A stretch of 64,000 nucleotides of DNA. Source: Minisyncoccia bacterium. GTDB lineage: Bacteria > Patescibacteriota > Minisyncoccia > SW-4-49-11. Positions 2,538 to 26,103 of the stretch are shown one piece after another. The number at the start of each line of letters is the position of its first letter. Within the stretch, counting starts at the first letter, position 1. The notes beneath the pieces were generated by a model. The model was given only the letters and a program-made list of their open reading frames with translations, was not told the DNA's origin and ran no database searches. The position numbers were made by a program, and so were the translations under genes. The DNA is taken from the NCBI GenBank assembly GCA_044341565.1, contig JBIIRM010000005.1, forward strand, positions 882 to 64,881, written 5' to 3'.

Positions 2538-3716
2538 TTATTTGTTTCGATATTCTATTATCAATGCTCCGAGTGAAGTATATACTACTACCAATCCTAT
2601 GATGAACCCTACAATTGGAACCCATGCCAAGAAGGATAATAATACATATATTCCTAATGCAATGAAATATATTTGCCAATCATTTTTTCCAAATTGATAT
2701 GTTCTATGTAACCATTGAGCAGTTACAATACTTGCTATTGCTTGAGAAAATATAATTAATGAAATATAGGCAAATAATGTAAATAGAGCTAATGGAATAC
2801 CAATAATAGTAATTATAAGTAATAGAATCACCATGATTGGTATAAAGAATAATAATGCCCCATATCCAAAAGCTCTGAATCCCTCTTCCCAATTAGAAAC
2901 CCTTTTTACTGATTTTTGAATGAATTTTTTATTGAAATTGAATATGAGAGCAATTACAAGAGCTGCTGAGAGCACCTCCCATACGAGGAATCCCGAGAAG
3001 GCTTTGGCTGCCATACCCTTTTTATCCCCTTTATCTTTTAAGAGCTCAGCATCAAATGTTGCTTTTGCTCCTTCTGCAAGATTTGGTTTGAGATCTAATT
3101 CTTTGGTAAATCCATAGGTTACATTACCTCCAAATCGAGATGATTCACTAATATCTACGGTTTGACTTGCAACAAAAGTTGTTTTACCTCCCAAATTTCC
3201 ATCTAGAGCAAAATCTGCTGTTCTGATATTACTATCTCCTTGTACTTCTCCTGTAATGGTAGTATTCTCAGAAGCTACTTTAATATTCCCCTTTACTGTT
3301 CCATCTAATTTGAGCTGAGATACAAAAGCAATAATATCTCCAGAAATAGTTACATCTTTATCTATAATTAAGGTTTGGGCAAATACAATTACATCTCCTT
3401 TCACATTACCTTTGATAGTAACATTAGAGGCTGCAATTCTGACATCATCCCCAATATCTGTATTAACAGCAACAGAATCTCCTGCCACTATTAAATCTTG
3501 CGAGATAGTAGCGTCAATATCTACTTTCCCTGCTGCAATTACAGCATCGCCCTCTATTGGGCTATCTATTTGTACTGTCTGACCAGCTAAATAAGCATCT
3601 CCCTGAACTTTTTCTTTTGGATTAACAATATCACCAGAATCTAATAATAAAGCAGAAGCTGACTGAGTTCCAAATAGTACTATTATAGCTACCAGTGCAA
3701 TAAGATATTTTTTCAT
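2538..3716 (-). CDS. Secreted/membrane protein with beta-helix-like repeats (bactofilin/DUF4097-like) and a C-terminal 4-TM domain
   Basis: Track ORF is 2538..3791. The likely start is the internal Met at 3716 (MKKYLIALVAIIVLFGTQSASA, a signal peptide). The body has many short V/I-x-G-D repeat units; the C-terminal third is hydrophobic. It lies 7 nt upstream of ccdA on the same strand. Confidence 0.55.
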   Translation of the reverse strand: MKKYLIALVAIIVLFGTQSASALLLDSGDIVNPKEKVQGDAYLAGQTVQIDSPIEGDAVIAAGKVDIDATISQDLIVAGDSVAVNTDIGDDVRIAASNVTIKGNVKGDVIVFAQTLIIDKDVTISGDIIAFVSQLKLDGTVKGNIKVASENTTITGEVQGDSNIRTADFALDGNLGGKTTFVASQTVDISESSRFGGNVTYGFTKELDLKPNLAEGAKATFDAELLKDKGDKKGMAAKAFSGFLVWEVLSAALVIALIFNFNKKFIQKSVKRVSNWEEGFRAFGYGALLFFIPIMVILLLIITIIGIPLALFTLFAYISLIIFSQAIASIVTAQWLHRTYQFGKNDWQIYFIALGIYVLLSFLAWVPIVGFIIGLVVVYTSLGALIIEYRNK

Positions 3717-3809
3717 AGCAGTATTCTTATTAATATATGTATAGTATACACCTTCTAGTAATAATTCCAAAATGGGAGTATAGTATAGCAAGAATTAAGA
3801 TAAAAATAT

Positions 3810-4814
3810 ATGAAATTACTTGCCTTCGAAATCGACGAATCAGAAAAAGTATATTTAGAAAATCATTTACCCGACTCTCTACCCCGAGAATATTATTCAG
3901 ATATATTGAAGCTGGAAGATTTAGAGGAAAAACAAGATACCACACATCTTGCAGTATTCGTATACTCTCAAGTAACTGCCCAAATTCTAGAAAAGCTCCC
4001 AAACTTGAAGGCAATATTCACTATGTCTACAGGATATGATCATATTGATATTGCAGCTGCCCAGGCTCGCGGAATTAGCGTACATTCTGTACCATTTTAT
4101 GGCGAGAATACCGTAGCCGAGCATACTTTTGCTCTAATATTAGCTTTGTCTCGACAAGTTGTACCATCTGTTGCTCGTACTCGTACTTTTGATTTTAATC
4201 CTGCTGGACTAGAAGGATTTGACCTCAAGGGGAAAACTCTCGGGATTATTGGTATGGGACATATTGGGTCTTTTGTCGCTCGTATTGCCAAAGGGTTTAA
4301 TATGAATATTCTTGCCTATGACCCCTTCCCTAAACCGGAACGAGCAACAGAAATTGGATTTACTTATACCAGTCTCGAGGAATTACTCCCTCAATCAGAT
4401 ATTATCACCCTACACACAGCCTATAGACCTGAGACACATCATATTATTAATCAGGAATCTATACAATTATTCAAGAGAGGTTCTTATCTCATTAATACTG
4501 CGCGTGGAGGACTTGTTGAAACATCTGCTATTATTAAAGGACTTGAAGATGGCATTCTGGCTGGAGCGGGTCTTGATGTACTCGAAGAAGAATGTTTTAT
4601 TAAAGAGGAAAAAGAATTATTATCACAGTCTTTCCTCAAAACCTGTGATCTTGCAACAGTGGTACAAGATCATCTCCTTATTCAAGATTCCCGTGTTATT
4701 GTAACCCCTCATAATGCCTTTAATTCTCGTGAGGCACTTGAGAGAATTCTCGAGACAACGGTTACGAATATTAAATCTCAATTAGAGAATAATCTTGTGA
4801 ATCAGATACAATAA
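3810..4814 (+). CDS. D-isomer-specific 2-hydroxyacid dehydrogenase (D-lactate / phosphoglycerate dehydrogenase family), NAD-binding
   Basis: GxGxxG Rossmann motif GIIGMGHIGSFVARIA. Catalytic-domain architecture is typical of the D-2-hydroxyacid dehydrogenase family, with conserved R/E/H positions present. Confidence 0.8.
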   Translation: MKLLAFEIDESEKVYLENHLPDSLPREYYSDILKLEDLEEKQDTTHLAVFVYSQVTAQILEKLPNLKAIFTMSTGYDHIDIAAAQARGISVHSVPFYGENTVAEHTFALILALSRQVVPSVARTRTFDFNPAGLEGFDLKGKTLGIIGMGHIGSFVARIAKGFNMNILAYDPFPKPERATEIGFTYTSLEELLPQSDIITLHTAYRPETHHIINQESIQLFKRGSYLINTARGGLVETSAIIKGLEDGILAGAGLDVLEEECFIKEEKELLSQSFLKTCDLATVVQDHLLIQDSRVIVTPHNAFNSREALERILETTVTNIKSQLENNLVNQIQ

Positions 4815-7474: not shown

Positions 7475-8146
7475 CTATTTCTCCAAATGAGAATAATCAT
7501 TATACACCCATACTCTCCAACCAGTATAAGGGTATTCTGGACTATATTGTAAAATTGTGAGTCCGGTATTCTCTATCCAATACTGCTCTTGTAATCGAGT
7601 ATATAATTCGGGATTAATACTATCCCCTAAAATCGCTCTAATAATTAATGTATTGAGGAAAAATTGATGAGTGACAACTCCTATATTTTGTTCTGGTCTT
7701 GATTGCAATAATTCTAAAGCCTTATCTGCTCGAGTAATAAGAGTATCATAACTATCTCCATCTTCTACCTGCTCACCTGAATTAAATAAACTATGTTTCC
7801 AAGCTTTTTCTGTAGCTAATACGAGCTCATCACTACGTAATTTTCCAATAATAGAACTTGGTTTTTGTCTCTCTACCAACAAATCTGAATATTCAATATT
7901 ATAGTCCCTATCCTGACTAATAATTTCCGTTGTCTCCCGAGCTCGAGTTAAAGTACTAGATAATAATACATCTAATTCAAATTTAGCTATACGCTTAGCT
8001 AATCTTTGAGACTGCTCTCGCCCTAATTCCGTAAGATACTGTTCAGCTAAATGTATATCTTCATTAATAGAATCAAGATGTTGTATATTACCTTCACTTT
8101 GGCCATGCCGGAAAAAATAAATAGTTTTTTGTGATTTTGATTGCAT
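7475..8146 (-). CDS. Histidine phosphatase (phosphoglycerate mutase-like) family protein
   Basis: N-terminal RHG motif (IYFFRHGQSEGN) of the histidine phosphatase superfamily. Confidence 0.75.
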   Translation of the reverse strand: MQSKSQKTIYFFRHGQSEGNIQHLDSINEDIHLAEQYLTELGREQSQRLAKRIAKFELDVLLSSTLTRARETTEIISQDRDYNIEYSDLLVERQKPSSIIGKLRSDELVLATEKAWKHSLFNSGEQVEDGDSYDTLITRADKALELLQSRPEQNIGVVTHQFFLNTLIIRAILGDSINPELYTRLQEQYWIENTGLTILQYSPEYPYTGWRVWVYNDYSHLEK

Positions 8147-8773: not shown

Positions 8774-9610
8774 ATGATTTCTTTCAAATTACACAATGGT
8801 TTTGATCGCCTCAAGATGTATAATGGATTCATGGGAGCTGTACATTTCTTCCAAGCTGGATTAATGTTATATATTTCTAAAGAATCTTTACTGCCTGTAT
8901 TTACCAATTATCTCAAATTTGATGCTACAAATCGTAGCGCTGTACCTATGCCAGTACAAGAAAAGTTATTTGATGTAAATATTGGACCAGCTGTTGCCCT
9001 ATTCTTATTATTATCAGCTATAGCCCATTTTATTACTATTTTACCAAGTGTATATCCTTGGTATATCAAAAATCTCAAGAAACATATTAATGTAATCCGA
9101 TGGTATGAATATGCTTTATCATCATCAATAATGATTGTAATAATAGGATTATTGGTTGGTATTTATGATTTCGCTACTCTCTTATTACTCTTTGGACTTA
9201 ATGCGAGTATGAATCTTTTTGGTCTTGTGATGGAGCAAATCAATCAAGATAGAAAAGAAGTAAATTGGCTTCCATATATATTTGGATGTATTGCCGGTAT
9301 AATCCCTTGGATTGTTATTTTCCTTCATTTCCAAGGAGCTCTTGCTAATGCCGATGTAGATGTGCCAAGTTTTGTATATTGGATTGTATTTTCATTATTT
9401 GCAGTATTTAATATATTTGCAATCAATATGTTCCTTCAATACAAAAAAGTTGGGCCTTGGAAATCATATGTATTTGGAGAAAAAATCTATGTTTTTCTAT
9501 CCCTATTTGCAAAAACATTATTAGCTTGGCAAGTATGGTCAGGAACTCTTAGGGGTCGTGAGAATGATGTATCAGCTGCTATTAACCATATTATTCACTT
9601 AATTTCATAG
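8774..9610 (+). CDS. Heliorhodopsin (7-TM retinal-binding photoreceptor, inverted topology family)
   Basis: 278-aa 7-TM protein with blocks matching the heliorhodopsin family: IRWYEYALSSSIMIVIIG, FGLNASMNLFGL, FGCIAGIIPWIVIF, VPSFVYWIVFSLFAVFNIFAINMFLQYKK, and the helix-7 Lys in SLFAKTLLAWQVWSGTL (the Schiff-base Lys position). Confidence 0.7.
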   Translation: MISFKLHNGFDRLKMYNGFMGAVHFFQAGLMLYISKESLLPVFTNYLKFDATNRSAVPMPVQEKLFDVNIGPAVALFLLLSAIAHFITILPSVYPWYIKNLKKHINVIRWYEYALSSSIMIVIIGLLVGIYDFATLLLLFGLNASMNLFGLVMEQINQDRKEVNWLPYIFGCIAGIIPWIVIFLHFQGALANADVDVPSFVYWIVFSLFAVFNIFAINMFLQYKKVGPWKSYVFGEKIYVFLSLFAKTLLAWQVWSGTLRGRENDVSAAINHIIHLIS

Positions 9611-9632
9611 CGTCAAAGAGAAATTAAGTACT

Positions 9633-9662
9633 AAAAAAGCTCCGATTACTCGGAGCTTTTTT
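9633..9662. terminator. Bidirectional rho-independent terminator
   Basis: aaaaagctccg-attact-cggagctttttt, between the convergent heliorhodopsin(+) and RRM protein(-) genes. Confidence 0.7.
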
Positions 9663-9674
9663 AATATCGAGGAC

Positions 9675-9926
9675 TTATTCTCGAGGCTTAGCAGGTTGAA
9701 TAGAGATTTCTCTTTCTAGAAGAGATGCTCCATCTAACTGTTGAATTGCTTTTTCAGCTTCTTCTTCTGTGGCAAATTCGACGAAACCGTAACCTTTGCT
9801 ACGTCCCTCTTCTTTGTCAAAGATGATTTTTGCTGAGACTACAGTCCCAACAGTCTCAAAAAGAGATTGTAAGTCCTGGTTTGTTGCTTTGTACGCAATA
9901 TTTCGTACAAATAGATTCTTGCTCAT
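9675..9926 (-). CDS. RNA-binding protein, single RRM domain
   Basis: RNP-2 (LFVRNI) and RNP-1 (KGYGFVEF) motifs in an 83-aa protein. Confidence 0.85.
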   Translation of the reverse strand: MSKNLFVRNIAYKATNQDLQSLFETVGTVVSAKIIFDKEEGRSKGYGFVEFATEEEAEKAIQQLDGASLLEREISIQPAKPRE

Positions 9927-18189: not shown

Positions 18190-18714
18190 ATGAGTGAATC
18201 ATTTGAAAAAATGTTAACAGGTGGACACCCAAACTCACTGGGACGAACATTAGAGGTGGTAGAATTAATACTTCAAGATAAAAAAAGAGTAGCTGAATTA
18301 TTAGACACCTATTCATCATCAGATGAAGTAGTAAGACTGCGTATTTCTAATGCCCTAAAACGCATATGCAAAGAACATCCAGACTGGATATATCCATACA
18401 CCGATATATTACTCTCAAAAATTGCTAAAATTAATCAAGCATCCACCCAATGGACTTTAGCTACCCTATTTCGATTATTATCATCCTCCTTAACTACCGA
18501 TCAAAAAGACCTTGCCATACAACATCTCAAACATAATCTGGATACTCATAGTGATTGGATTGTAATCAATACCACTATGGAAACATTATTCACTTGGGGC
18601 AAAGATAATCCCCCATTAGCTGAATGGCTTATTCCAAGACTTAAAAAATTCCAACAAGATACCCATAAATCAATATCCGGAAGGGCAACTAAATACCTTA
18701 TAGCCTTATCTTGA
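18190..18714 (+). CDS. HEAT-repeat protein, possibly DNA alkylation repair (AlkD-like) family
   Basis: Helical repeat composition. Start taken at MSESFEKML (18190) to avoid the overlap with the minus-strand gene implied by the track ORF start at 18040. The product call is weak. Confidence 0.4.
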   Translation: MSESFEKMLTGGHPNSLGRTLEVVELILQDKKRVAELLDTYSSSDEVVRLRISNALKRICKEHPDWIYPYTDILLSKIAKINQASTQWTLATLFRLLSSSLTTDQKDLAIQHLKHNLDTHSDWIVINTTMETLFTWGKDNPPLAEWLIPRLKKFQQDTHKSISGRATKYLIALS

Positions 18715-18762
18715 CTATATCTCTCTTATTCGGTACAATATACAAGTACCTTGCAAATCTAA

Positions 18763-18900
18763 TTCCGCGATAGCTTTTACCTCAAAACTGTCCCTTCTCG
18801 CAAAGAAGCCAGAGAATTAGAAAAAAAGTTAAAATCAGGACAAGGAAAAGAATATCTCAAATCAATTATGATTAAGAAATTCAATCTAAATTCTGACTAG
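18763..18900 (+). pseudogene. Truncated remnant of a small GIY-YIG-family nuclease gene (C-terminal ~40 codons only), fused to a duplicate of the tRNA-Asn 5' end
   Basis: The frame reads ...SRKEARELEKKLKSGQGKEYLKSIMIKKFNLNSD*. This matches the characteristic C-terminus of ~90-aa GIY-YIG proteins, but there is no N-terminal GIY/YIG block and no start codon. A 16-nt exact copy of the tRNA-Asn 5' end (taattccgcgatagct, 18760..18775 vs 18903..18918) sits at its 5' edge. Confidence 0.35.
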
Positions 18901-18905
18901 ATAAT

Positions 18906-18980
18906 TCCGCGATAGCTCAGCGGTAGAGCAGTCGGCTGTTAACCGATTGGTCGTAGGTTCGAATCCTACTCGCGGAGCCA
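18906..18980 (+). tRNA. tRNA-Asn (anticodon GTT), CCA encoded
   Basis: Cloverleaf TCCGCGA-TA-GCTC-AGCGGTA-GAGC-A-GTCGG-CTGTTAA-CCGAT-TGGTC-GTAGG-TTCGAAT-CCTAC-TCGCGGA-G-CCA. Confidence 0.85.
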
Positions 18981-19100
18981 AACAAGATAAAGCCAGGGTA
19001 ATTCCTATCTTGAGTTAATTTTTGTATATCTAAAGGGAGAGACTGCAATGTCTCTTGAGTAATAGAATCCCAATCTAGCGGTAATAGTTTCATACTATTA

Positions 19101-20405
19101 TTATATATACTTCTGAGCCTCTTCCCATTCCTCCTCAGATAAATTCCCTTTGATTCCTAGCGCTTTTATAGGTGAGGAAATAAATCTTTGCATCAATGCT
19201 ATCAATTCATTATAGGAAGTTGTCCTAATATTATTATAATAGTCATCGGGAGTATATATAATCCCCTCAGGATATTGTAATAAAGATCCATAAAACTCAT
19301 TCAAGGCATAAATACTAGAATAATATTGCTTAGAAGCACTTATTTGTGCTATTTTGAATCTTTCAATATCTTCTATTGTAATATATTGCGTAAAGTTATG
19401 TAATACGGTATTAATTATCTGTAGTGATTCAATAAGAGACTCTTTATTTATAGTATATGTTATTGCAATATTATAAGAACCTCCATAGTCATAATAATCA
19501 GTATTAACCCAATATATTAACCCCCTTTTCACTCTGAGTTCCTGTAATAAAATTGATGTCCAGAAATTTCCTAATGCTGTACGTAATAAAGCAAGTGAAG
19601 CACAATCTTTATAGTAAAAAGACCCTTGAAGTCCATAATTAAATACACCTTTTATATTGTCTTCTGAAGAATTGAGTACTATATTTGTAGAAGATACATT
19701 TTCTATTAGTGTGTTAGTAGACAAGGAATGAGAAATGCCATCTTCCTCTAAGATTATTGCCGAGATATCAGGAGAGATAATAACTAAATGAGCCTTATCT
19801 TTGGTATAATGCAATTGTGCATACTGGATATATTGCTCATACGAAATATTGTCTAAATCTCCAAATACATCTTGTGCTAAAGCTGATCCAAAGAAAAGAT
19901 TATCAAATGTACGTCGTTCTATATCAGTTTCTGAATCTTGTTTTTCTTGAGCAATGATTTTCTTTTCTTTATCAAATATCTCTTGAGATACTGATTCTTG
20001 ATCAAAATTTTTCAATAATAATTGAAGAGACGATATTAGATGAGCTGGATCTTGTATATGAGAATAATTGGTTAAATATGCTGCTGTGTAAGCACTAGCA
20101 CTAATACCATACTCTTCTAAAGTTTTTGCCTTAGTATATTCATCATCTCCTCCTGCCCAAAGATGTTCAAAAAAATGAGATAACCCTTGAGCATTAGCAT
20201 CATCAAGTGCATATCCTCGTGCAAACCAAAGAGATGCAGAAGACATAATTTGTTGCTTATCTTCTATTACTGTTGTCTTTATTCCTTGATATATCCCCTG
20301 TTTAATATTGGACATAATAATGTTGTTTAAACTATACTCAGTATATATAAAATAATGAGGGAAGGCAACTTGTACCTTCCCTGTTTGGAACATGGAGCTA
20401 AACAA
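19101..20405 (-). CDS. M16-family (pitrilysin/insulinase-like) zinc peptidase
   Basis: Inverted zinc motif HxxEH in GLSHFFEHLWAGG, with the overall M16 N-domain layout. The true start may be the internal Met (MSNIKQG, ~20315). Confidence 0.65.
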   Translation of the reverse strand: MFSSMFQTGKVQVAFPHYFIYTEYSLNNIIMSNIKQGIYQGIKTTVIEDKQQIMSSASLWFARGYALDDANAQGLSHFFEHLWAGGDDEYTKAKTLEEYGISASAYTAAYLTNYSHIQDPAHLISSLQLLLKNFDQESVSQEIFDKEKKIIAQEKQDSETDIERRTFDNLFFGSALAQDVFGDLDNISYEQYIQYAQLHYTKDKAHLVIISPDISAIILEEDGISHSLSTNTLIENVSSTNIVLNSSEDNIKGVFNYGLQGSFYYKDCASLALLRTALGNFWTSILLQELRVKRGLIYWVNTDYYDYGGSYNIAITYTINKESLIESLQIINTVLHNFTQYITIEDIERFKIAQISASKQYYSSIYALNEFYGSLLQYPEGIIYTPDDYYNNIRTTSYNELIALMQRFISSPIKALGIKGNLSEEEWEEAQKYI

Positions 20406-20418
20406 CTAATGTTGAGGC

Positions 20419-20517
20419 TTACTTGCCACCACCACCAGGTCGAGTAGGAGCGGGACCGCCGCCGCCAGTACCTTTCGTTCCACTTCCAGGGTTACCATGA
20501 CGATTGTTGTTGCCCAT
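20419..20517 (-). CDS. Glycine-rich micro-ORF 2 (32 aa: MGNNNRHGNPGSGTKGTGGGGPAPTRPGGGGK)
   Basis: ATG preceded by cggagaattacctca (GGAG about 11 nt upstream), an upstream context nearly identical to that of micro-ORF 1. GC-rich. The alternative reading is the 100-aa track ORF 20419..20721 in the same frame. Confidence 0.3.
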   Translation of the reverse strand: MGNNNRHGNPGSGTKGTGGGGPAPTRPGGGGK

Positions 20518-20569
20518 TGAGGTAATTCTCCGAAGTACTAAATGGATTAGACCTTGATACAGTGAGGGA

Positions 20570-20659
20570 TCATTTCCCCCGGGTACCCGAGCCACCACCA
20601 TGTCCACCGCCATTGCCGGTGCCGCCACCGGTTTTGGTTCCACCTGTTTGAGCTGCCAT
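20570..20659 (-). CDS. Glycine-rich micro-ORF 1 (29 aa: MAAQTGGTKTGGGTGNGGGHGGGSGTRGK)
   Basis: First ATG downstream of the predicted promoter, preceded by cggagattcatttca (GGAG). It has its own TGA stop and is in a different frame from the 100-aa track ORF. Confidence 0.3.
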   Translation of the reverse strand: MAAQTGGTKTGGGTGNGGGHGGGSGTRGK

Positions 20660-20705
20660 TGAAATGAATCTCCGAGCGAGGGTGTAATGAGACGGAAATG
20701 TCTCG

Positions 20706-20752
20706 CAATAAAATCTATCATGATTATTAATATTTGTCAATAGTTGTCAATT
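20706..20752 (-). promoter_or_regulatory. Strong sigma70-like promoter (two phased TTGACA boxes) driving the glycine-rich micro-ORFs and M16 peptidase
   Basis: The minus strand reads ATTGACAActATTGACAAatattaataatcatgaTAGATT. TTGACA has a 17-nt spacer to TAGATT; the second TTGACA has 17 nt to ATAATC. Confidence 0.45.
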
Positions 20753-20794
20753 ATATTAATTCTTCCTGAAAACCTCCTAGATTACCCACTCAAA

Positions 20795-20824
20795 GGTTCG
20801 AACATTGTCCAACTCGCGGAGCCA
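20795..20824 (+). repeat. Degenerate direct repeat of the tRNA-Asn 3' end (att-like remnant)
   Basis: ggttcgaa-cattgtcca-actcgcggagcca versus tRNA-Asn ggttcgaa-tcct-actcgcggagcca: exact matches of 8 and 13 nt, 1.8 kb downstream of the tRNA. A weaker third copy lies at 23282..23310 (tctaactcccgaagcc). Confidence 0.55.
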
Positions 20825-20895
20825 ACTCCCCTTAAACAGCTTAATCGTAATATTCTCAATTAATGCTATACTATATGTATATTTAACTCTATTAT

Positions 20896-22443
20896 ATGAA
20901 AGTTAGTAGAAAAATCTTTTTCATAGCCCCAGGGATTATATTGTTATGTGTAGTGATATTAAGTGGGTATATAATAATGAATAGTAATACTCAATCAGCT
21001 ACCTCTCCTAATACACCACCCTACTTAACGGAAGTAAGGGATTATACATTACATAATACTATTTCATTTATAAAACCAATTGATTATACAAAATACCAGG
21101 ATAATCAGGAAGATCTAGATATTGCTATGCAAAAAACCTATCTCGAGGGAGGAATAACTTTTGATGAATTTTTAGAACTGAATAGTATGGTAAATTTAAT
21201 AGATAATAATCTTAAAGATATAGAAGCAAATCTATATTACAACTCAGAAACTGTGCTATCTGGAGTTATTTTGAGCTCTAATAAAGAAGATTTTTATACA
21301 AATGCACGCCAAAAACTACAAGAGTTGAATATTAATTCCCCAGATCTCACCTCTCTCAAAATCACTGAGATATATTTTCGGACCACCTCTCAAGATTCTA
21401 GAGCTTTAGAGTTAGCTTATTTATTCAATATCAACACTGATGTTGAATTTAATAAAAATCTTAAAATAAAACTAGATAATGCTATTAACTCTAATAATTA
21501 CTCCGATTTAGAAAATACAGGATTAAATATATCTAGCCCTTATAATACCGATAATTATGGACTCAAAAGATTAAAAAGGGAGAATGAAGAAAAGACTAAG
21601 AGATTAGCACAAATTGAGTCCTGTATACTTGATTTATATATTCAAGAAGCCAATTTAAAGATTAGATTAAATCAACCTACATGGAGCACCAAAAAAGACC
21701 AATATACAGAAACTATATCTAATCTAAGTAATAAAATTGGATCAATAAACTCACAAGGAGAAAGGACTATAATAGGATGTGAACAATATCATTTCCACAA
21801 TATCCAAATCAGATTCACAAAACCACTCTCTATTAGTGATATTCAAGAGATTGAGAATACCTTACCATTAATTTATCCCAAAAAATATATAGCGGAATTA
21901 GATCCAGACTATAGGACTAACACTACTAGTGCAGAAATAGACATATTAAATGCTCAATTTGATGACTATGGACCTGAAGACTATACTTATCGTGATATAG
22001 ATTTAATAACCACCACATCTACTGAAACTTCACAGTTATTTGCTTTATTTAATCCTGGGAAAAATTGGGAAGATATGAAAAATAATTATTATCAAAATCG
22101 TACATACTTAAATATCCCTAAAGATAGTGTCGAGAAATATAGAAATGACCAGGATACAATCTATTACTTTACTAACAACCCTCAGTATACTAATTTAAGT
22201 ACTCAGTATATTGATGGTGTTACTCTCTTTACCACAACCCTAGACGATCCATATCTATGCTTACAACAATTATTAACATCAGATAACCACTCATCTTGTA
22301 GTGTATTCTCTTTAAATCAAAGCCAGAAAAAGCTCTTACAATCCTACATAAAATTGATTGAAATTACCCCTGTAACACCACATACCCACACAGACTTATA
22401 TAAATTTGAGGTAAGCCCAACTTCTTCTTTTTGGGTAAAGTAA
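20896..22443 (+). CDS. Hypothetical secreted/membrane-anchored protein (515 aa)
   Basis: N-terminal TM/signal anchor, then an Asn/Thr/Tyr-rich body with no recognizable domain. Confidence 0.5.
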   Translation: MKVSRKIFFIAPGIILLCVVILSGYIIMNSNTQSATSPNTPPYLTEVRDYTLHNTISFIKPIDYTKYQDNQEDLDIAMQKTYLEGGITFDEFLELNSMVNLIDNNLKDIEANLYYNSETVLSGVILSSNKEDFYTNARQKLQELNINSPDLTSLKITEIYFRTTSQDSRALELAYLFNINTDVEFNKNLKIKLDNAINSNNYSDLENTGLNISSPYNTDNYGLKRLKRENEEKTKRLAQIESCILDLYIQEANLKIRLNQPTWSTKKDQYTETISNLSNKIGSINSQGERTIIGCEQYHFHNIQIRFTKPLSISDIQEIENTLPLIYPKKYIAELDPDYRTNTTSAEIDILNAQFDDYGPEDYTYRDIDLITTTSTETSQLFALFNPGKNWEDMKNNYYQNRTYLNIPKDSVEKYRNDQDTIYYFTNNPQYTNLSTQYIDGVTLFTTTLDDPYLCLQQLLTSDNHSSCSVFSLNQSQKKLLQSYIKLIEITPVTPHTHTDLYKFEVSPTSSFWVK

Positions 22444-22455
22444 TCTCAAGACTAG

Positions 22456-22698
22456 CTACCTCATCAAAAGCCAAATGTCTATTGAGGTAATAATTATTGC
22501 AGTAATTATGGCAAGTGCGACTATACTAGATCCAATATCTTTAATTCTTTTGATATGAATATTCCACTTAGGTTCCATAAAATCACAAATTAACTCTATG
22601 GTAGTATTAATCAATTCTAAAATAATAATTGAAATACCAAATAATATCGTTTGCTTTATTAATTCCCAACTTTCCAAAAAAACTTCTAGTCCAACCAA
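22456..22698 (-). CDS. Small membrane protein (hypothetical)
   Basis: 80 aa with two hydrophobic helices. Confidence 0.35.
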   Translation of the reverse strand: MVGLEVFLESWELIKQTILFGISIIILELINTTIELICDFMEPKWNIHIKRIKDIGSSIVALAIITAIIITSIDIWLLMR

Positions 22699-22786
22699 TA
22701 CCAGAGTAGTAATAATTGTTTGTATGATTAGGTTATTATCTCTAGAGAAAGCATATGATAAGCCTTCAACTCATAATTGATATTTT

Positions 22787-23110
22787 TTAAGCAGTTTCAT
22801 AGGGTAGATTATCTTTTACCCAATGCATCATCCCGACAGCACTATTGATTACATAAAAACCTTGTTTCTCCATAAGTAAAGAAGCTATTTGAGAGCGTCC
22901 ACCACTTTTACAGTAGATAATATAGGTTTTCGATGGATCTAATCTTTTTATTTCCTGAACAATATCAGACCTACTAATATCAAAATTTACCGCTCCCGCT
23001 ATATGCCCTTGATTAAACTCCTCTGAAGTCCGAACATCAAGTAATATTTCATTCTCTTGTAAATTGTGAGATTTAAATTGTAACTCTTGGGTTGTAGATA
23101 TTATATTCAT
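22787..23110 (-). CDS. Rhodanese-domain sulfurtransferase (single domain)
   Basis: LLDVRTSEEFNQGHIAGAVNFD...YIIYCKSGGRSQ, with the active-site Cys loop CKSGGR. Confidence 0.85.
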   Translation of the reverse strand: MNIISTTQELQFKSHNLQENEILLDVRTSEEFNQGHIAGAVNFDISRSDIVQEIKRLDPSKTYIIYCKSGGRSQIASLLMEKQGFYVINSAVGMMHWVKDNLPYETA

Positions 23111-23362
23111 GCTATTATAGTAAGCTAGACATATACTTTACTACATATATCTATCCATTTCAATTTGTAATCACTTCTCTCTTTTCAAATTTATATACTT
23201 GTTAGCCATATAATACTTTAGTAGAGAACGTGTATTCTACTATACTAAAGTAAAAGTGGATTAAGCACTGCTGTCTACCACTCAAACATCGTCTAACTCC
23301 CGAAGCCTAGATGATGTGTGCAACGTATTAATACAAATCTAATTACCAAATTATTGTATTTA

Positions 23363-24091: not shown

Positions 24092-24330
24092 ATTATTTTT
24101 ATGATTCTATTGTAATTATACACATTTATATATATTTTATCTACTTATAAAATTTATCTCCTCTCAAAACTATAGTGAGCCCCCTTTAGGGTAATTAGTA
24201 CTCTCTACCTCTCATTTTTATTATTGATTTTGAGAGAGTATGATGAGAAAAACGTAAGAATAAAGAATCCCCCCACTTAGGTGAGAGGATTGTTGGAATT
24301 AGAGTTTACTTATCTTTCGTAGAGATTAAC

Positions 24331-25302
24331 TCAGTGATTTGCCTTTGCTAATAAAGCCTGTTTACTAGGAATCCGTAGCTGATAAGCCCAACCAAGACGC
24401 TCCAGAAATCGTATGAAGTAGTAGGTAGGGTCTGGTAATGTCACTACCTTGTTACCCTGTAGGGTAAAGCCTTGTCTTGCTGAGTATTCGAAGCTATGGT
24501 GTAGATTATGCCAACCTTCGCCAAGAGTGATAATAGCCACCCAAGGGTTGTTACGACTACCATCGCGGGTAATGAATGGCTGATCACCTACTAAGTGGGC
24601 CACAGAGTTTACCGTAGCAACACCGTGGAACAAAAGAGTAGTACTCAGACAAAATGCACCCAACCATTCTATACCACCGATATGCCAGGAGATCCAAGCT
24701 AATGCCAAAGCTGGCACTATATGTAGTCTATCGATCAAACGTAATACAGGATCAGACTCTATATCAGCTGGTAGGGTACTAGGATGAAATCCAGGTGAAA
24801 GTATCCAACCTATCTGAGAATGCCAAAAACCATGCAGTCGATTTCTATACATCAGAGGGCTATGAGGATCATCCAAGGTATCAACATGACGATGATGAGC
24901 CTTGTGATGAGCCTTCCACCAACTTGGTCCCATCTGGCCTGCTGAGGCTGTTATTATGGATCCGATCCACCATACTAGTCTAGGAGCCTTATAGCTATTG
25001 TGAGTAATCAAGCGATGGTAAATGGCAGTAATTCCAAGCATCCGTACTAGGTATAATACTGTAGCCCAGAGGATGGCGTATAATCCAAGTCTCTCCCGAA
25101 ACAGCAGTAGACAGCCTATATGCGCAACCAGTATGAATACCGGTCCCATACCATGCAAAAACCGAAGGAGATGGGATTGGGAAATAGAATGGGAAGATAC
25201 TGCTGTGGAACTGATAGATTTTGAATTAAACATCAGCATATTCCAGTCTAAACTGGACCATAAGGACATAAACACCTTAGCATACTTATTATGTTTAATC
25301 AA
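24331..25302 (-). CDS. desC: Acyl-CoA/acyl-lipid delta-9 fatty acid desaturase (membrane di-iron, three His boxes)
   Basis: His boxes HRLITH, HKAHHRHVDTLDDPHSP and GEGWHNLHHSF match the stearoyl-CoA/DesC delta-9 desaturase family. The body is ~45% GC against a ~30% background. The AT-rich first ~50 codons suggest the true start may be an internal Met (~25149). Confidence 0.75.
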   Translation of the reverse strand: MIKHNKYAKVFMSLWSSLDWNMLMFNSKSISSTAVSSHSISQSHLLRFLHGMGPVFILVAHIGCLLLFRERLGLYAILWATVLYLVRMLGITAIYHRLITHNSYKAPRLVWWIGSIITASAGQMGPSWWKAHHKAHHRHVDTLDDPHSPLMYRNRLHGFWHSQIGWILSPGFHPSTLPADIESDPVLRLIDRLHIVPALALAWISWHIGGIEWLGAFCLSTTLLFHGVATVNSVAHLVGDQPFITRDGSRNNPWVAIITLGEGWHNLHHSFEYSARQGFTLQGNKVVTLPDPTYYFIRFLERLGWAYQLRIPSKQALLAKANH

Positions 25303-25349
25303 TATACAGAAATATATCTATTCTAGGATATGATACTTCTATCCTTCAA

Positions 25350-25382
25350 AGAAAAATCCCTCCAGCTGAACCAGAGGGATTG
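25350..25382 (-). terminator. Rho-independent terminator downstream of the ADO gene (minus strand)
   Basis: Plus strand aatccctc-cagctgaacca-gagggatt preceded by gaaaaa, i.e. stem plus T-run on the minus strand. Confidence 0.6.
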
Positions 25383-25401
25383 AATTAGATTGAATTGTAG
25401 A

Positions 25402-26103
25402 TCAGATTAGGGCTGCGGTAGCGAGCTTGGCGATTTCACGGGTGGAGAATCCGATTTTCGTCAAAGCTTCTTGATATGAGATGAGGAAATCCTCAATGAG
25501 GTCTTCCCTGTCCATTTGGAGGACGGCCGCGTCACCGGCTACCTGATCAAGCATAATGCGTACCAATGGGAGATTGTCCCGATTGGCCTGCTCCAACTCC
25601 TTACGAATAGCTTCGAAATTAGACCTAAGCCATTCTTGACCATAATTGAGATGAGCGTATTCATCCTTGACTACTCCCTCGGTGATTTTCCGTGCAAACG
25701 GATCAGCAACTGGGATATAGATGTGATAAGCTGCAATTGCAAAGGCCTCGATGAGAATCGCTTGAATCAGCAAACAGGTGACTACCTTCCTCTCTGTAAA
25801 AGCTTTTTGAAAATTACCATGTAGGGGCAAGAAAAACTCTTTAGCAAAAGGTATATCTGCTTGCACTCCCAAGTTGCGGGCACAGGCAGTGAAACCCTTC
25901 ATATGCCTCAGCTCCATACCCGCAAGGCGGGTAAGCTCTTCAGCCTGATCGGGTAGCAAGCTACCAAGGGAAATGTAATTGTCATAAGCTTCTTGCTCAC
26001 CTTCAATCACAATTGCATTGATGCGACTATAAGCATCTTTGTAATCCCTGGTGGTGAAATCTGGTAGACCTTCCACAAGTGGTTTAGAAGACGTAATTGA
26101 CAT
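25402..26103 (-). CDS. ado: Aldehyde-deformylating oxygenase (cyanobacterial-type fatty aldehyde decarbonylase, ferritin-like di-iron)
   Basis: Very close match throughout to cyanobacterial ADO: [128 protein letters not shown] is clearly elevated relative to flanking genes. Confidence 0.9.

Follow-up and report, generated by a model that had tools for sequence, protein, structure and literature searches.

A tRNA-Asn gene hotspot in a Minisyncoccia bacterium with a truncated GIY-YIG cassette and decayed copies of the tRNA ends

The tRNA-Asn locus and its relatives

The DNA in this report is a stretch of 64,000 nucleotides (nt) from a Minisyncoccia bacterium (assembly GCA_044341565.1, contig JBIIRM010000005.1, positions 882 to 64,881), here called the window, and its subject is the surroundings of the sole tRNA-Asn(GTT) gene of that window. 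The gene lies at 18906..18980 on the + strand and is intact, with its CCA encoded (ARAGORN; Rfam tRNA, 73.5 bits). Partial copies of it occur on both sides: a copy of the 5' end precedes the stump of a GIY-YIG nuclease gene just upstream, and two decayed copies of the 3' end lie downstream, the first beyond a peptidase gene and two glycine-rich micro open reading frames (micro-ORFs) and the second beyond a large membrane-anchored protein, a kinase fragment, and a rhodanese. A preliminary description had taken these copies as scars of site-specific integration that delimit two cargo islands. The likely native promoter of the tRNA (TTGACT-17 nt-TACAAT, 18711..18739, +; 10 of 12 positions in a consensus scan) stands upstream of all of these, and its sequence is conserved in the related loci L018, L010, and L046.

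Loci for comparison were collected in several ways. Scanning species-representative genomes with a degenerate tRNA-Asn pattern gave 30 loci, from which BLAST retained L018, a Saccharibacteria metagenome-assembled genome (MAG) with ~95% nt identity to the neighborhood in the window, and L010, labelled Paceibacterota, with ~80%. L046/L047 (~88%) and L048 (~70%) were reached through homologues of the GIY-YIG protein and have in common with the window the synteny HisRS-AhpC-YgjP-174-aa protein. L052 was reached through homologues of the downstream DUF4336 protein (83% aa identity) and covers the M16 peptidase side, so that comparison on the 3' side of the tRNA is with three relatives (L018, L010, and L052). 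The identity tree is ((window, L018), L046), L010, L048. A metagenome scan with the 174-aa upstream protein returned only loci at ≤62% identity, none with a tRNA, and gave no synteny information.

Rfam searches of the window, L018, L010, L046, and L048 to L051 recovered only tRNAs and one group I intron, with no match for the cassette leaders described below. The intron (558 nt; RF00028, 75 bits) lies in L046 at 9258-9815, and in L047 in the same way, where it splits the anticodon loop of tRNA-Asn after CTGT; it encodes a 106-aa HNH endonuclease, and ARAGORN then calls no tRNA. The same tRNA gene has thus been targeted by a third kind of selfish element, in addition to those described below.

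A truncated GIY-YIG cassette upstream of the tRNA

The 16-mer TAATTCCGCGATAGCT occurs exactly twice in the window, at 18760..18775 and 18902..18917 (both +), and consists of 4 nt of upstream flank followed by tRNA positions 1 to 12. The right-hand repeat is the TAAT upstream of the functional tRNA with its first 12 nt. The left-hand repeat, correctly picked out in the preliminary description, is what remains of the tRNA 5' mimic of a cassette that is intact in relatives. It runs into the GIY-YIG gene remnant (18775..18900, +), which that description had also recognized: 18775..18897 encodes 41 aa with 92.7% identity (tblastn) to residues 47 to 87 of the intact 87-aa GIY-YIG protein of L010, and the stop codon is at 18898-18900. 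Alignment shows that the stump is without the catalytic N-terminal half and that the MYYVY, YVG, and RRL motifs are absent from it; these motifs, together with E..K, are conserved in the proteins of the relatives. An intact catalytic domain is not kept in the window, and PF01541 is intact in L010, L046, and L048.

In these three relatives the intact 87-aa gene ends 5 nt upstream of tRNA-Asn. The left end of the cassette consists of TAATTCCGCGATAGCT, CAGCGGTA, and GAGCAGTC, in this order, with one hairpin (TTTACCTCCCGYAGGGAGG) after the first of these and another (ACTACCnnnnGGTAGT) after the second; it is therefore a copy of tRNA-Asn positions ~1 to 28 whose D-loop region is interrupted by the two hairpins. 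The cassette, ~350 bp long, separates the tRNA from its promoter and is present as two tandem units in L048. Since the promoter lies upstream of the left repeat, in the cassette-bearing relatives as in the window, the cassette is inside the tRNA transcription unit, and the tRNA promoter probably drives both cassette and tRNA as one transcript.

Comparison of the window with L010 and L046 places a deletion junction at TTTTACCTC (18775..18783, +). Each intact cassette has this 9-mer behind the mimic and again, ~210 nt farther on, within the ORF (L010 1343-1351 and 1553-1561). The alignments show that the cassette of the window was truncated by a 210-bp deletion between the two 9-nt repeats, which took both hairpins along with the part of the gene that codes for the catalytic half, so that only the 16-nt repeat and a stump of 41 codons are left. 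L018 has no cassette at all: its upstream flank meets the tRNA directly through a single 16-mer, at a junction that is otherwise 95 to 99% identical, so that presence and absence of the cassette are polymorphic among close relatives. By parsimony on the identity tree, the cassette is most likely ancestral, with a precise loss across the repeat in L018 and a truncation in the window.

GIY-YIG cassettes at other tRNA genes

The evidence that such cassettes form a family is comparative and comes from about ten loci. Of six clusters of distant homologues of the GIY-YIG protein whose contigs were read, five adjoin a tRNA gene (≤19 nt away or overlapping it); given a few dozen tRNA genes per Mb, we estimate the chance of adjacency within 20 nt at well under 1% per gene. 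The GIY-YIG ORF runs into tRNA-Pro in L049 (Dojkabacteria) and into tRNA-Lys in L051 (Daviesbacteria); two units and a truncated third stand directly upstream of tRNA-Leu(UAA) in L057/L059; and in L050 (Melioribacter) tandem units lie downstream of tRNA-Leu(CAA). Two further examples, L005 and L012, were drawn from the 28 unrelated tRNA-Asn loci of the pattern scan: L005 has a GIY-YIG gene ~200 nt downstream of tRNA-Asn, and L012 has a partial, weaker match ~180 nt downstream. The proteins all have 70 to 131 aa, most with PF01541 alone and a few with PF10544 as well, and the cassette family is seen in the Candidate Phyla Radiation (CPR), in Ignavibacteriota, and in two MAGs without firm placement.

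In each well-resolved case a partial copy of the end of the adjacent tRNA is found on the far side of the gene: the L049 copy matches exactly over 22 nt and the L050 copy at 31 of 32 nt; in L005 the far side carries a repeat of the terminator plus flank. Mimics of the upstream type are interrupted in the D-loop, by a hairpin in L057 and L051 and by three tandem copies of a 59-nt unit in L049 (the tRNA-Pro mimic, 2824-2990), and the downstream-type mimic of L050 is interrupted in the T-loop, where the insertion holds six copies of a ~22-nt repeat. The loop insertions themselves seem to expand. The ORFs of L049 and L051 extend 21 to 23 nt into the tRNA gene (3242-3264 and 3253-3273, respectively) and end at the TAG of the D-loop, an overlap that is likely to confuse annotation pipelines.

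The L050 cassette encodes no integrase and yields the same kind of 3'-end direct repeat as is seen in the window, so such repeats are not diagnostic of integrase action. The architecture at tRNA genes is consistent and apparently undescribed. A literature search for GIY-YIG and tRNA adjacency, partial tRNA copies, and COG2827 found only SegB of phage T4, organellar and intron endonucleases, and general reviews, and the 2006 survey of the GIY-YIG superfamily covers stand-alone Slx1-like prokaryotic proteins with no mention of a tRNA linkage.

Decayed copies of the tRNA 3' end

The first downstream copy, which we call copy 2, is a decayed mimic of the tRNA-Asn 3' end, CCCACTCAAAGGTTCGAA-CATTG-TCCAACTCGCGGAGCCAA, at 20786..20825 (+; Smith-Waterman alignment and relatives). 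Its core at 20794..20825 reads AGGTTCGAA, CATTG, and TCCaACTCGCGGAGCCAA, i.e., 9 and 14 exact nt around a 5-nt insertion, slightly longer than the 8 and 13 nt at 20795..20824 first reported. It aligns to the 3' half of the tRNA with a Smith-Waterman score of 36, compared to ≤22 for other window positions, and the exact 14-mer, like the upstream 16-mer, is confined in the window to the sites described here. Orthologues stand at 5001-5041 in L018 and ~17576-17636 in L052, and in all three genomes copy 2 adjoins the promoter of a conserved operon of a Gly-rich micro-ORF and the M16 peptidase. This common position indicates that copy 2 predates these lineages. Relatives of copy 2 with the same T-loop insertion are found elsewhere, at L018 2359-2399 and L010 6427-6467.

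The identity continues past the end of the copy. A remnant of a terminator-type flank (CTCCCCTTAAACAGCTTA) follows at 20826..20843 (+), as seen by blastn of window 20785-20843 against L010 6427-6485 (93%). The same kind of flank (AACTCCCTTTAAACAGCTTATTTTAGCTG...) directly follows tRNA-Asn itself in L010; elsewhere it follows decayed copies or the third of the units described below. The repeat arm of the 3' side is written CCCACTCAAAGGTTCGAACAT / CCACTCAAAGGTTCGAACAT.

Copy 3, at 23274..23309 (+), was given earlier as a degenerate copy at 23282..23310, and it too is real. It is a decayed member of the copy 2 family, with an 8-nt deletion of GGTTCGAA and the CATYG insertion kept. Against the tRNA itself the match is weak (score 14), and against copy 2 it is the best non-tRNA match in the window (27, compared to a background of 24). 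A profile built from four decayed copies in relatives plus copy 2 finds copy 3 by nhmmer at E = 6e-4, with the next window match at E = 6.3, and copy 3 is present in L018 at ~7490-7525. The alignments show copies 2 and 3 to be one decayed family with a common T-loop insertion, as judged from sequence. Both lie on the strand of the tRNA, so that the locus has an intact gene with displaced fragments in direct orientation.

182-nt units downstream of the tRNA

Two identical (100%) units of 182 nt stand in tandem directly after tRNA-Asn in L018 (1340-1703), and a third lies at 2379-2560, behind a 180-aa ORF and a decayed 3' copy, with 85% identity in gapped BLAST and 68% ungapped. Each unit starts with the terminator hairpin of the tRNA, continues with GTAGG, which is the 5' strand of the T-stem, and ~110 nt of structure, and ends in AATCCTACTCGCGGAGC / GGTTtGcAATCCTACTCGCGGAGCC, identical to the last 19 to 24 nt of the tRNA. 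The units fold far better than shuffled sequences (z = -6.0 and -4.9). Of the 44 predicted pairs, 4 consecutive ones differ between diverged units in both partners and still pair, and not one of the 44 is broken. We rejected a reading of the unit as a 44-aa ORF, given that the differences between units are these four compensatory swaps and loop changes. Rfam returned no family above threshold for the units (best ylbH, 27 bits, gathering score 50). The folding predictions suggest a possible new structured element, of RNA or of single-stranded DNA, and in architecture they look like an ORF-less version of the 3' mimic of the L050 type.

What is left in the window is a stump of such a unit at 18981..19007 (+), its first ~27 nt with half of the terminator hairpin, 26 of 26 nt identical to the start of L018 unit C. 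The features of a tRNA-linked repeat (TLR), namely a position immediately downstream of the tRNA, 3' identity of ~18 to 19 nt, and 1 to 5 copies, are all found in L018, and the window keeps 27 nt. A 35-nt fragment like the spacer of the 182-nt unit lies at 24214..24249 (+; blastn, 84 to 89%), at the edge of a GC-rich foreign block between the DUF4336 gene and a desaturase gene, and may be another junction scar.

Scans of IMG/VR gave no match for the GIY-YIG family, for the copy 2 (att-arm) motif, or for the 182-nt unit motif; the tRNA's 3' end matched only in two viral contigs, of 198 kb and 314 kb. No integrase was found in the window among all 52 ORFs of ≥150 aa, which were read and of which 20 were Pfam-searched; the preliminary description had likewise seen none left in the islands. 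Gene tables and Pfam gave no integrase or recombinase in the corresponding regions of L018, L010, and L052.

Genes between the copies

The stump of the 182-nt unit is fused to the N-terminal ~27 codons of a deleted gene for an S9-family peptidase/hydrolase (19013..19093, -). Its matches are L018 2617-3465(-), which has Pfam Peptidase_S9, and L010 6504-7337(-); the gene is complete in both. The fusion implies that ~2.4 kb that lie next to the tRNA in L018 are missing from the window.

The M16 peptidase gene (19101..20315, -; HFFEH motif, Pfam) is a mosaic allele by its identity profiles. Its N-terminal ~80 aa are ~90% identical to L018 and the rest 30 to 60%; overall, the window protein is 58% identical to that of L018, and the L018 and L052 proteins are 88% identical to each other. 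At the nucleotide level, the block from 19007 to ~20080 is 52 to 82% identical to L018, compared to 88 to 100% for its flanks. These values point to an allele that was replaced or is a mosaic, bounded on its left by the tRNA-linked stump.

Behind a promoter-like site (TTGACA-16 nt-AATAAT, 20723..20750, -; 11 of 12 positions, conserved in L018 and L052) lie two Gly-rich micro-ORFs: micro-ORF A, of 29 aa (MAAQTGGTKTGGGTGNGGGHGGGSGTRGK; 20570..20659, -), with a near-identical counterpart in L052 and a related ORF in L018, and micro-ORF B, of 32 aa (MGNNNRHGNPGSGTKGTGGGGPAPTRPGGGGK; 20419..20517, -), identified by sequence in a region that is hypervariable relative to L018. A terminator-like hairpin separates them from the M16 gene (20358-20382). 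The micro-ORF region and most of the M16 gene are hypervariable between flanks of 95 to 100% identity, and one possibility is that the two form a peptide/peptidase pair under diversifying exchange. In L010, the promoter region of window 20716-20761 (87% over 46 nt) precedes different cargo at 2686-4200, namely a 64-aa ORF, a JmjC-domain protein, and a Polbeta-like nucleotidyltransferase, which suggests cassette swapping behind a fixed promoter. The higher GC content reported for this interval is confined to ~20400-20700, where it is due to the glycine codons of the micro-ORFs, and does not extend to the M16 gene, at ~30% GC; we do not use GC content as evidence for an island.

Between copies 2 and 3, the first gene encodes a 515-aa protein (20896..22443, +) that has a membrane anchor at its N-terminus, belongs to no Pfam family, and is present in L018; L052 has other genes there. 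The next gene, for which the preliminary description gave a small membrane protein, is a truncated diacylglycerol kinase of which the C-terminal 80 aa remain (22456..22698, -; Pfam DAGK_prokar, profile positions 38 to 99 of 102), with 75% nt identity to a full 152-aa gene in L052. It is followed by the rhodanese (22787..23110, -; Pfam). The gene order of L052 has rhodanese, full-length kinase, DUF2200, and DUF4336 as a block next to CMAS, and other genes follow copy 2. This placement indicates that the rhodanese and the truncated kinase of the window are rearranged neighborhood DNA and not imported cargo. L018 has the whole interval, copy 3 included, with 96% identity. In L010, ~75-nt repeats of the tRNA 3' end plus terminator enclose an accessory block of 4.7 kb.

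Farther downstream, at 24331-26103 (-), a block of ~45% GC within a Saccharibacteria-like genome of ~31% GC encodes a desaturase for fatty acids and an aldehyde decarbonylase of the cyanobacterial type (Pfam Ald_deCOase, E = 1e-115). L052 lacks the block between DUF4336 and CMAS, and it is probable that a CPR bacterium here acquired a gene of a hydrocarbon pathway by horizontal transfer.

Discussion

The tRNA-Asn locus is a hotspot, as had been claimed for it. We read it, with moderate confidence, as an old one that holds the wreckage of two or more kinds of tRNA-linked selfish DNA, which deletions and homologous replacement later reworked, and not as two integrase-borne islands. The repeats are homologous to the tRNA and not due to chance, and to that extent the earlier account of them stands. 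That integrases made them is wrong for the 5' side, where the copy is the end of a GIY-YIG cassette, and is not demonstrated for the 3' side. Nor do two discrete islands survive the comparison: copy 2 has orthologues in L018 and L052, and deletions and allele replacement have altered the DNA between the copies. Hotspots at tRNA genes are in themselves ordinary, and the copies in the window are fossils; the unexpected part of the result lies mostly outside the window.

An alternative, that of the preliminary description, is an explanation by at least two small insertions into the tRNA-Asn 3' end, made by tyrosine or serine integrases that displaced the old end and whose genes were since lost or acted in trans, with the 5' copy as a similar scar. 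Partial 3' copies in direct orientation do bound DNA that varies between relatives, and the identity of copy 2 runs from the T-loop past the end of the tRNA into the terminator-type flank, as in the displaced tRNA-gene (tDNA) fragments described in the Islander abstract and in PMC9897764; the L010 block between its ~75-nt repeats has the same look. On the other hand, none of the four genomes has an integrase or recombinase there, the intervals measure 1.8 and 2.5 kb, and copy 2 is orthologous across lineages, adjoining the promoter of a conserved operon. Some of the supposed cargo is displaced core-neighborhood DNA, cassettes free of integrases (L050 and L005) leave the same repeat signature, the att-arm and 182-nt-unit motifs are without an IMG/VR match, and the intact GIY-YIG cassettes of L010, L046, and L048 contradict the scheme on the 5' side. 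We regard it as unlikely, yet as deserving more weight than the two explanations that follow.

One of these dispenses with mobile elements on the 3' side and has the tRNA 3' end plus its downstream DNA multiplied by local tandem duplication or unequal crossing-over, with genes shuffled later. The two 100%-identical tandem units of L018 fit the description of E. coli TLRs (PMC8144298), and the derived indels common to the copy 2 family are as expected if decayed copies duplicate one another. Left unexplained are the 5' cassette, the same loop-insertion design in GIY-YIG-linked mimics at other tRNAs, and the kilobases of unrelated genes between the copies, and we think this account improbable. 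That the similarity of the repeats arose by chance, the genome being AT-rich, we find hardly credible and reject. Copy 3 taken alone is barely above background in its match to copy 2, but its profile E-value and its conservation in L018, the restriction of the exact 16-mer and 14-mer to the described sites, the score of copy 2, and the recurrence of the copies at the same positions in relatives all speak against chance.

Several observations weigh against the reading of the locus as wreckage of selfish DNA and of the cassettes as homing elements. The 3' side is covered by only three relatives, none with an empty site: L010 has the terminator-type flank directly after the tRNA and again 4.7 kb on, and L018 and L052 keep copy 2 in place. 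The identity in copy 2 begins in the T-loop, the classical sublocation of integrase crossover, and the multi-kb cargo between the 3' copies resembles decayed integrase islands. In this clade no GIY-YIG gene was found 3' of tRNA-Asn, so that the link between the 3' copies and the cassettes is one of analogy in architecture, drawn from L050, L005, and the L018 units. One cluster of homologues, L060 to L065, is without a nearby tRNA, and the 87-aa protein has no recognizable DNA-binding domain such as I-TevI and the Seg proteins have. The cassette 5' leaders contain hairpins but are not thermodynamically unusual (z = +0.3 to -2.4), and with their overall stability ordinary we do not claim them as structured RNAs.

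Under the reading that we prefer, the cassette would be a homing-type selfish element, a proposal made from sequence and gene arrangement. Its nuclease would cut tRNA-gene DNA in the segment coding for the D-loop or the T-loop, and the partial copy together with the real tRNA would be homology arms that the element carries along, by which repair could copy it into any genome with that tRNA. The loop insertion may spoil the decoy copy, either as a target of the nuclease or as a tRNA half. The cassette would ride on the tRNA promoter, with the tRNA still released by processing, and its flanking repeats would permit tandem amplification and precise loss. By analogy, the 3' copies and 182-nt units may have arisen from duplications of the cassette type or of the TLR type, and the 3' copies and the tRNA would now act as conserved anchors for swaps of accessory genes by homologous recombination. 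A wider proposal, which we put forward tentatively and hold to be somewhat less probable than not, is that minimal single-domain GIY-YIG genes with a partial, loop-interrupted tRNA copy are undescribed homing cassettes, widespread in tRNA genes of different bacterial phyla, in which the copy would be both homology arm and immune decoy and expression would come from the tRNA promoter of the host; repeats that lack an ORF, among them the 182-nt units and perhaps the E. coli TLRs, would then be decayed or non-autonomous derivatives, and the present locus a fossil bed.

Four known systems invite comparison. The locus is like tDNA islands in its intact tRNA with partial copies in direct orientation, variable accessory DNA between them, and identity from the T-loop. 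It differs from them in having no integrase, very small intervals, copies that are orthologous across lineages, a 5'-end copy that is part of a nuclease cassette, and cargo that is in part rearranged neighborhood DNA. Sublocation classes for integration into tRNA genes were reportedly set out by Williams in 2002. Among free-standing homing endonucleases the nearest parallel is SegB of phage T4, a GIY-YIG gene in a tRNA gene cluster (PMC2330249). As with the cassette, the gene is lodged among or against tRNA genes, is present or absent between close relatives, and follows a selfish-element logic. Unlike SegB, the cassette protein appears from its sequence to be a minimal Slx1/COG2827-like domain of 78 to 92 aa with no DNA-binding extension, and the cassette is chromosomal, often tandem, flanked by tRNA-end direct repeats with a loop insertion, and without a match in IMG/VR.

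The 182-nt units are close in layout to the TLRs of E. coli, such as the 178-bp repeats of tyrT (PMC8144298): both measure ~180 nt, occur in tandem immediately downstream of a tRNA, and end in ~19 nt identical to the tRNA 3' end. There is, however, no sequence or Rfam similarity between them, and the units described here have strong structure with compensatory changes, start with the terminator hairpin, and include the 5' strand of the T-stem, so that they read as a T-arm with a large T-loop insertion. To our knowledge, no function has been assigned to tRNA-linked repeats since 1978. The group I introns that carry homing endonucleases in tRNA anticodon loops are like the cassette in occupying the same tRNA-Asn, in L046 with an HNH ORF, which makes this gene a target of multiple elements; they differ in their self-splicing mechanism and insertion site, and none is in the window.

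For the window itself the practical outcome is modest: an annotation should not list the two "islands" as mobile elements. It is routine to take direct repeats of part of a tRNA for att scars of an integrase and to set the limits of genomic islands by them, and a tiny GIY-YIG cassette with a spoiled tRNA fragment, an element free of integrase, gives the same signature at both ends of tRNA genes. If the cassette family is real, it would represent a new homing strategy in which the homology arms are built in and match a universally conserved target. It would also offer a possible origin for tRNA-linked repeats and would bear on the annotation of CPR genomes, with their pseudo-tRNA fragments and tRNA-overlapping ORFs.

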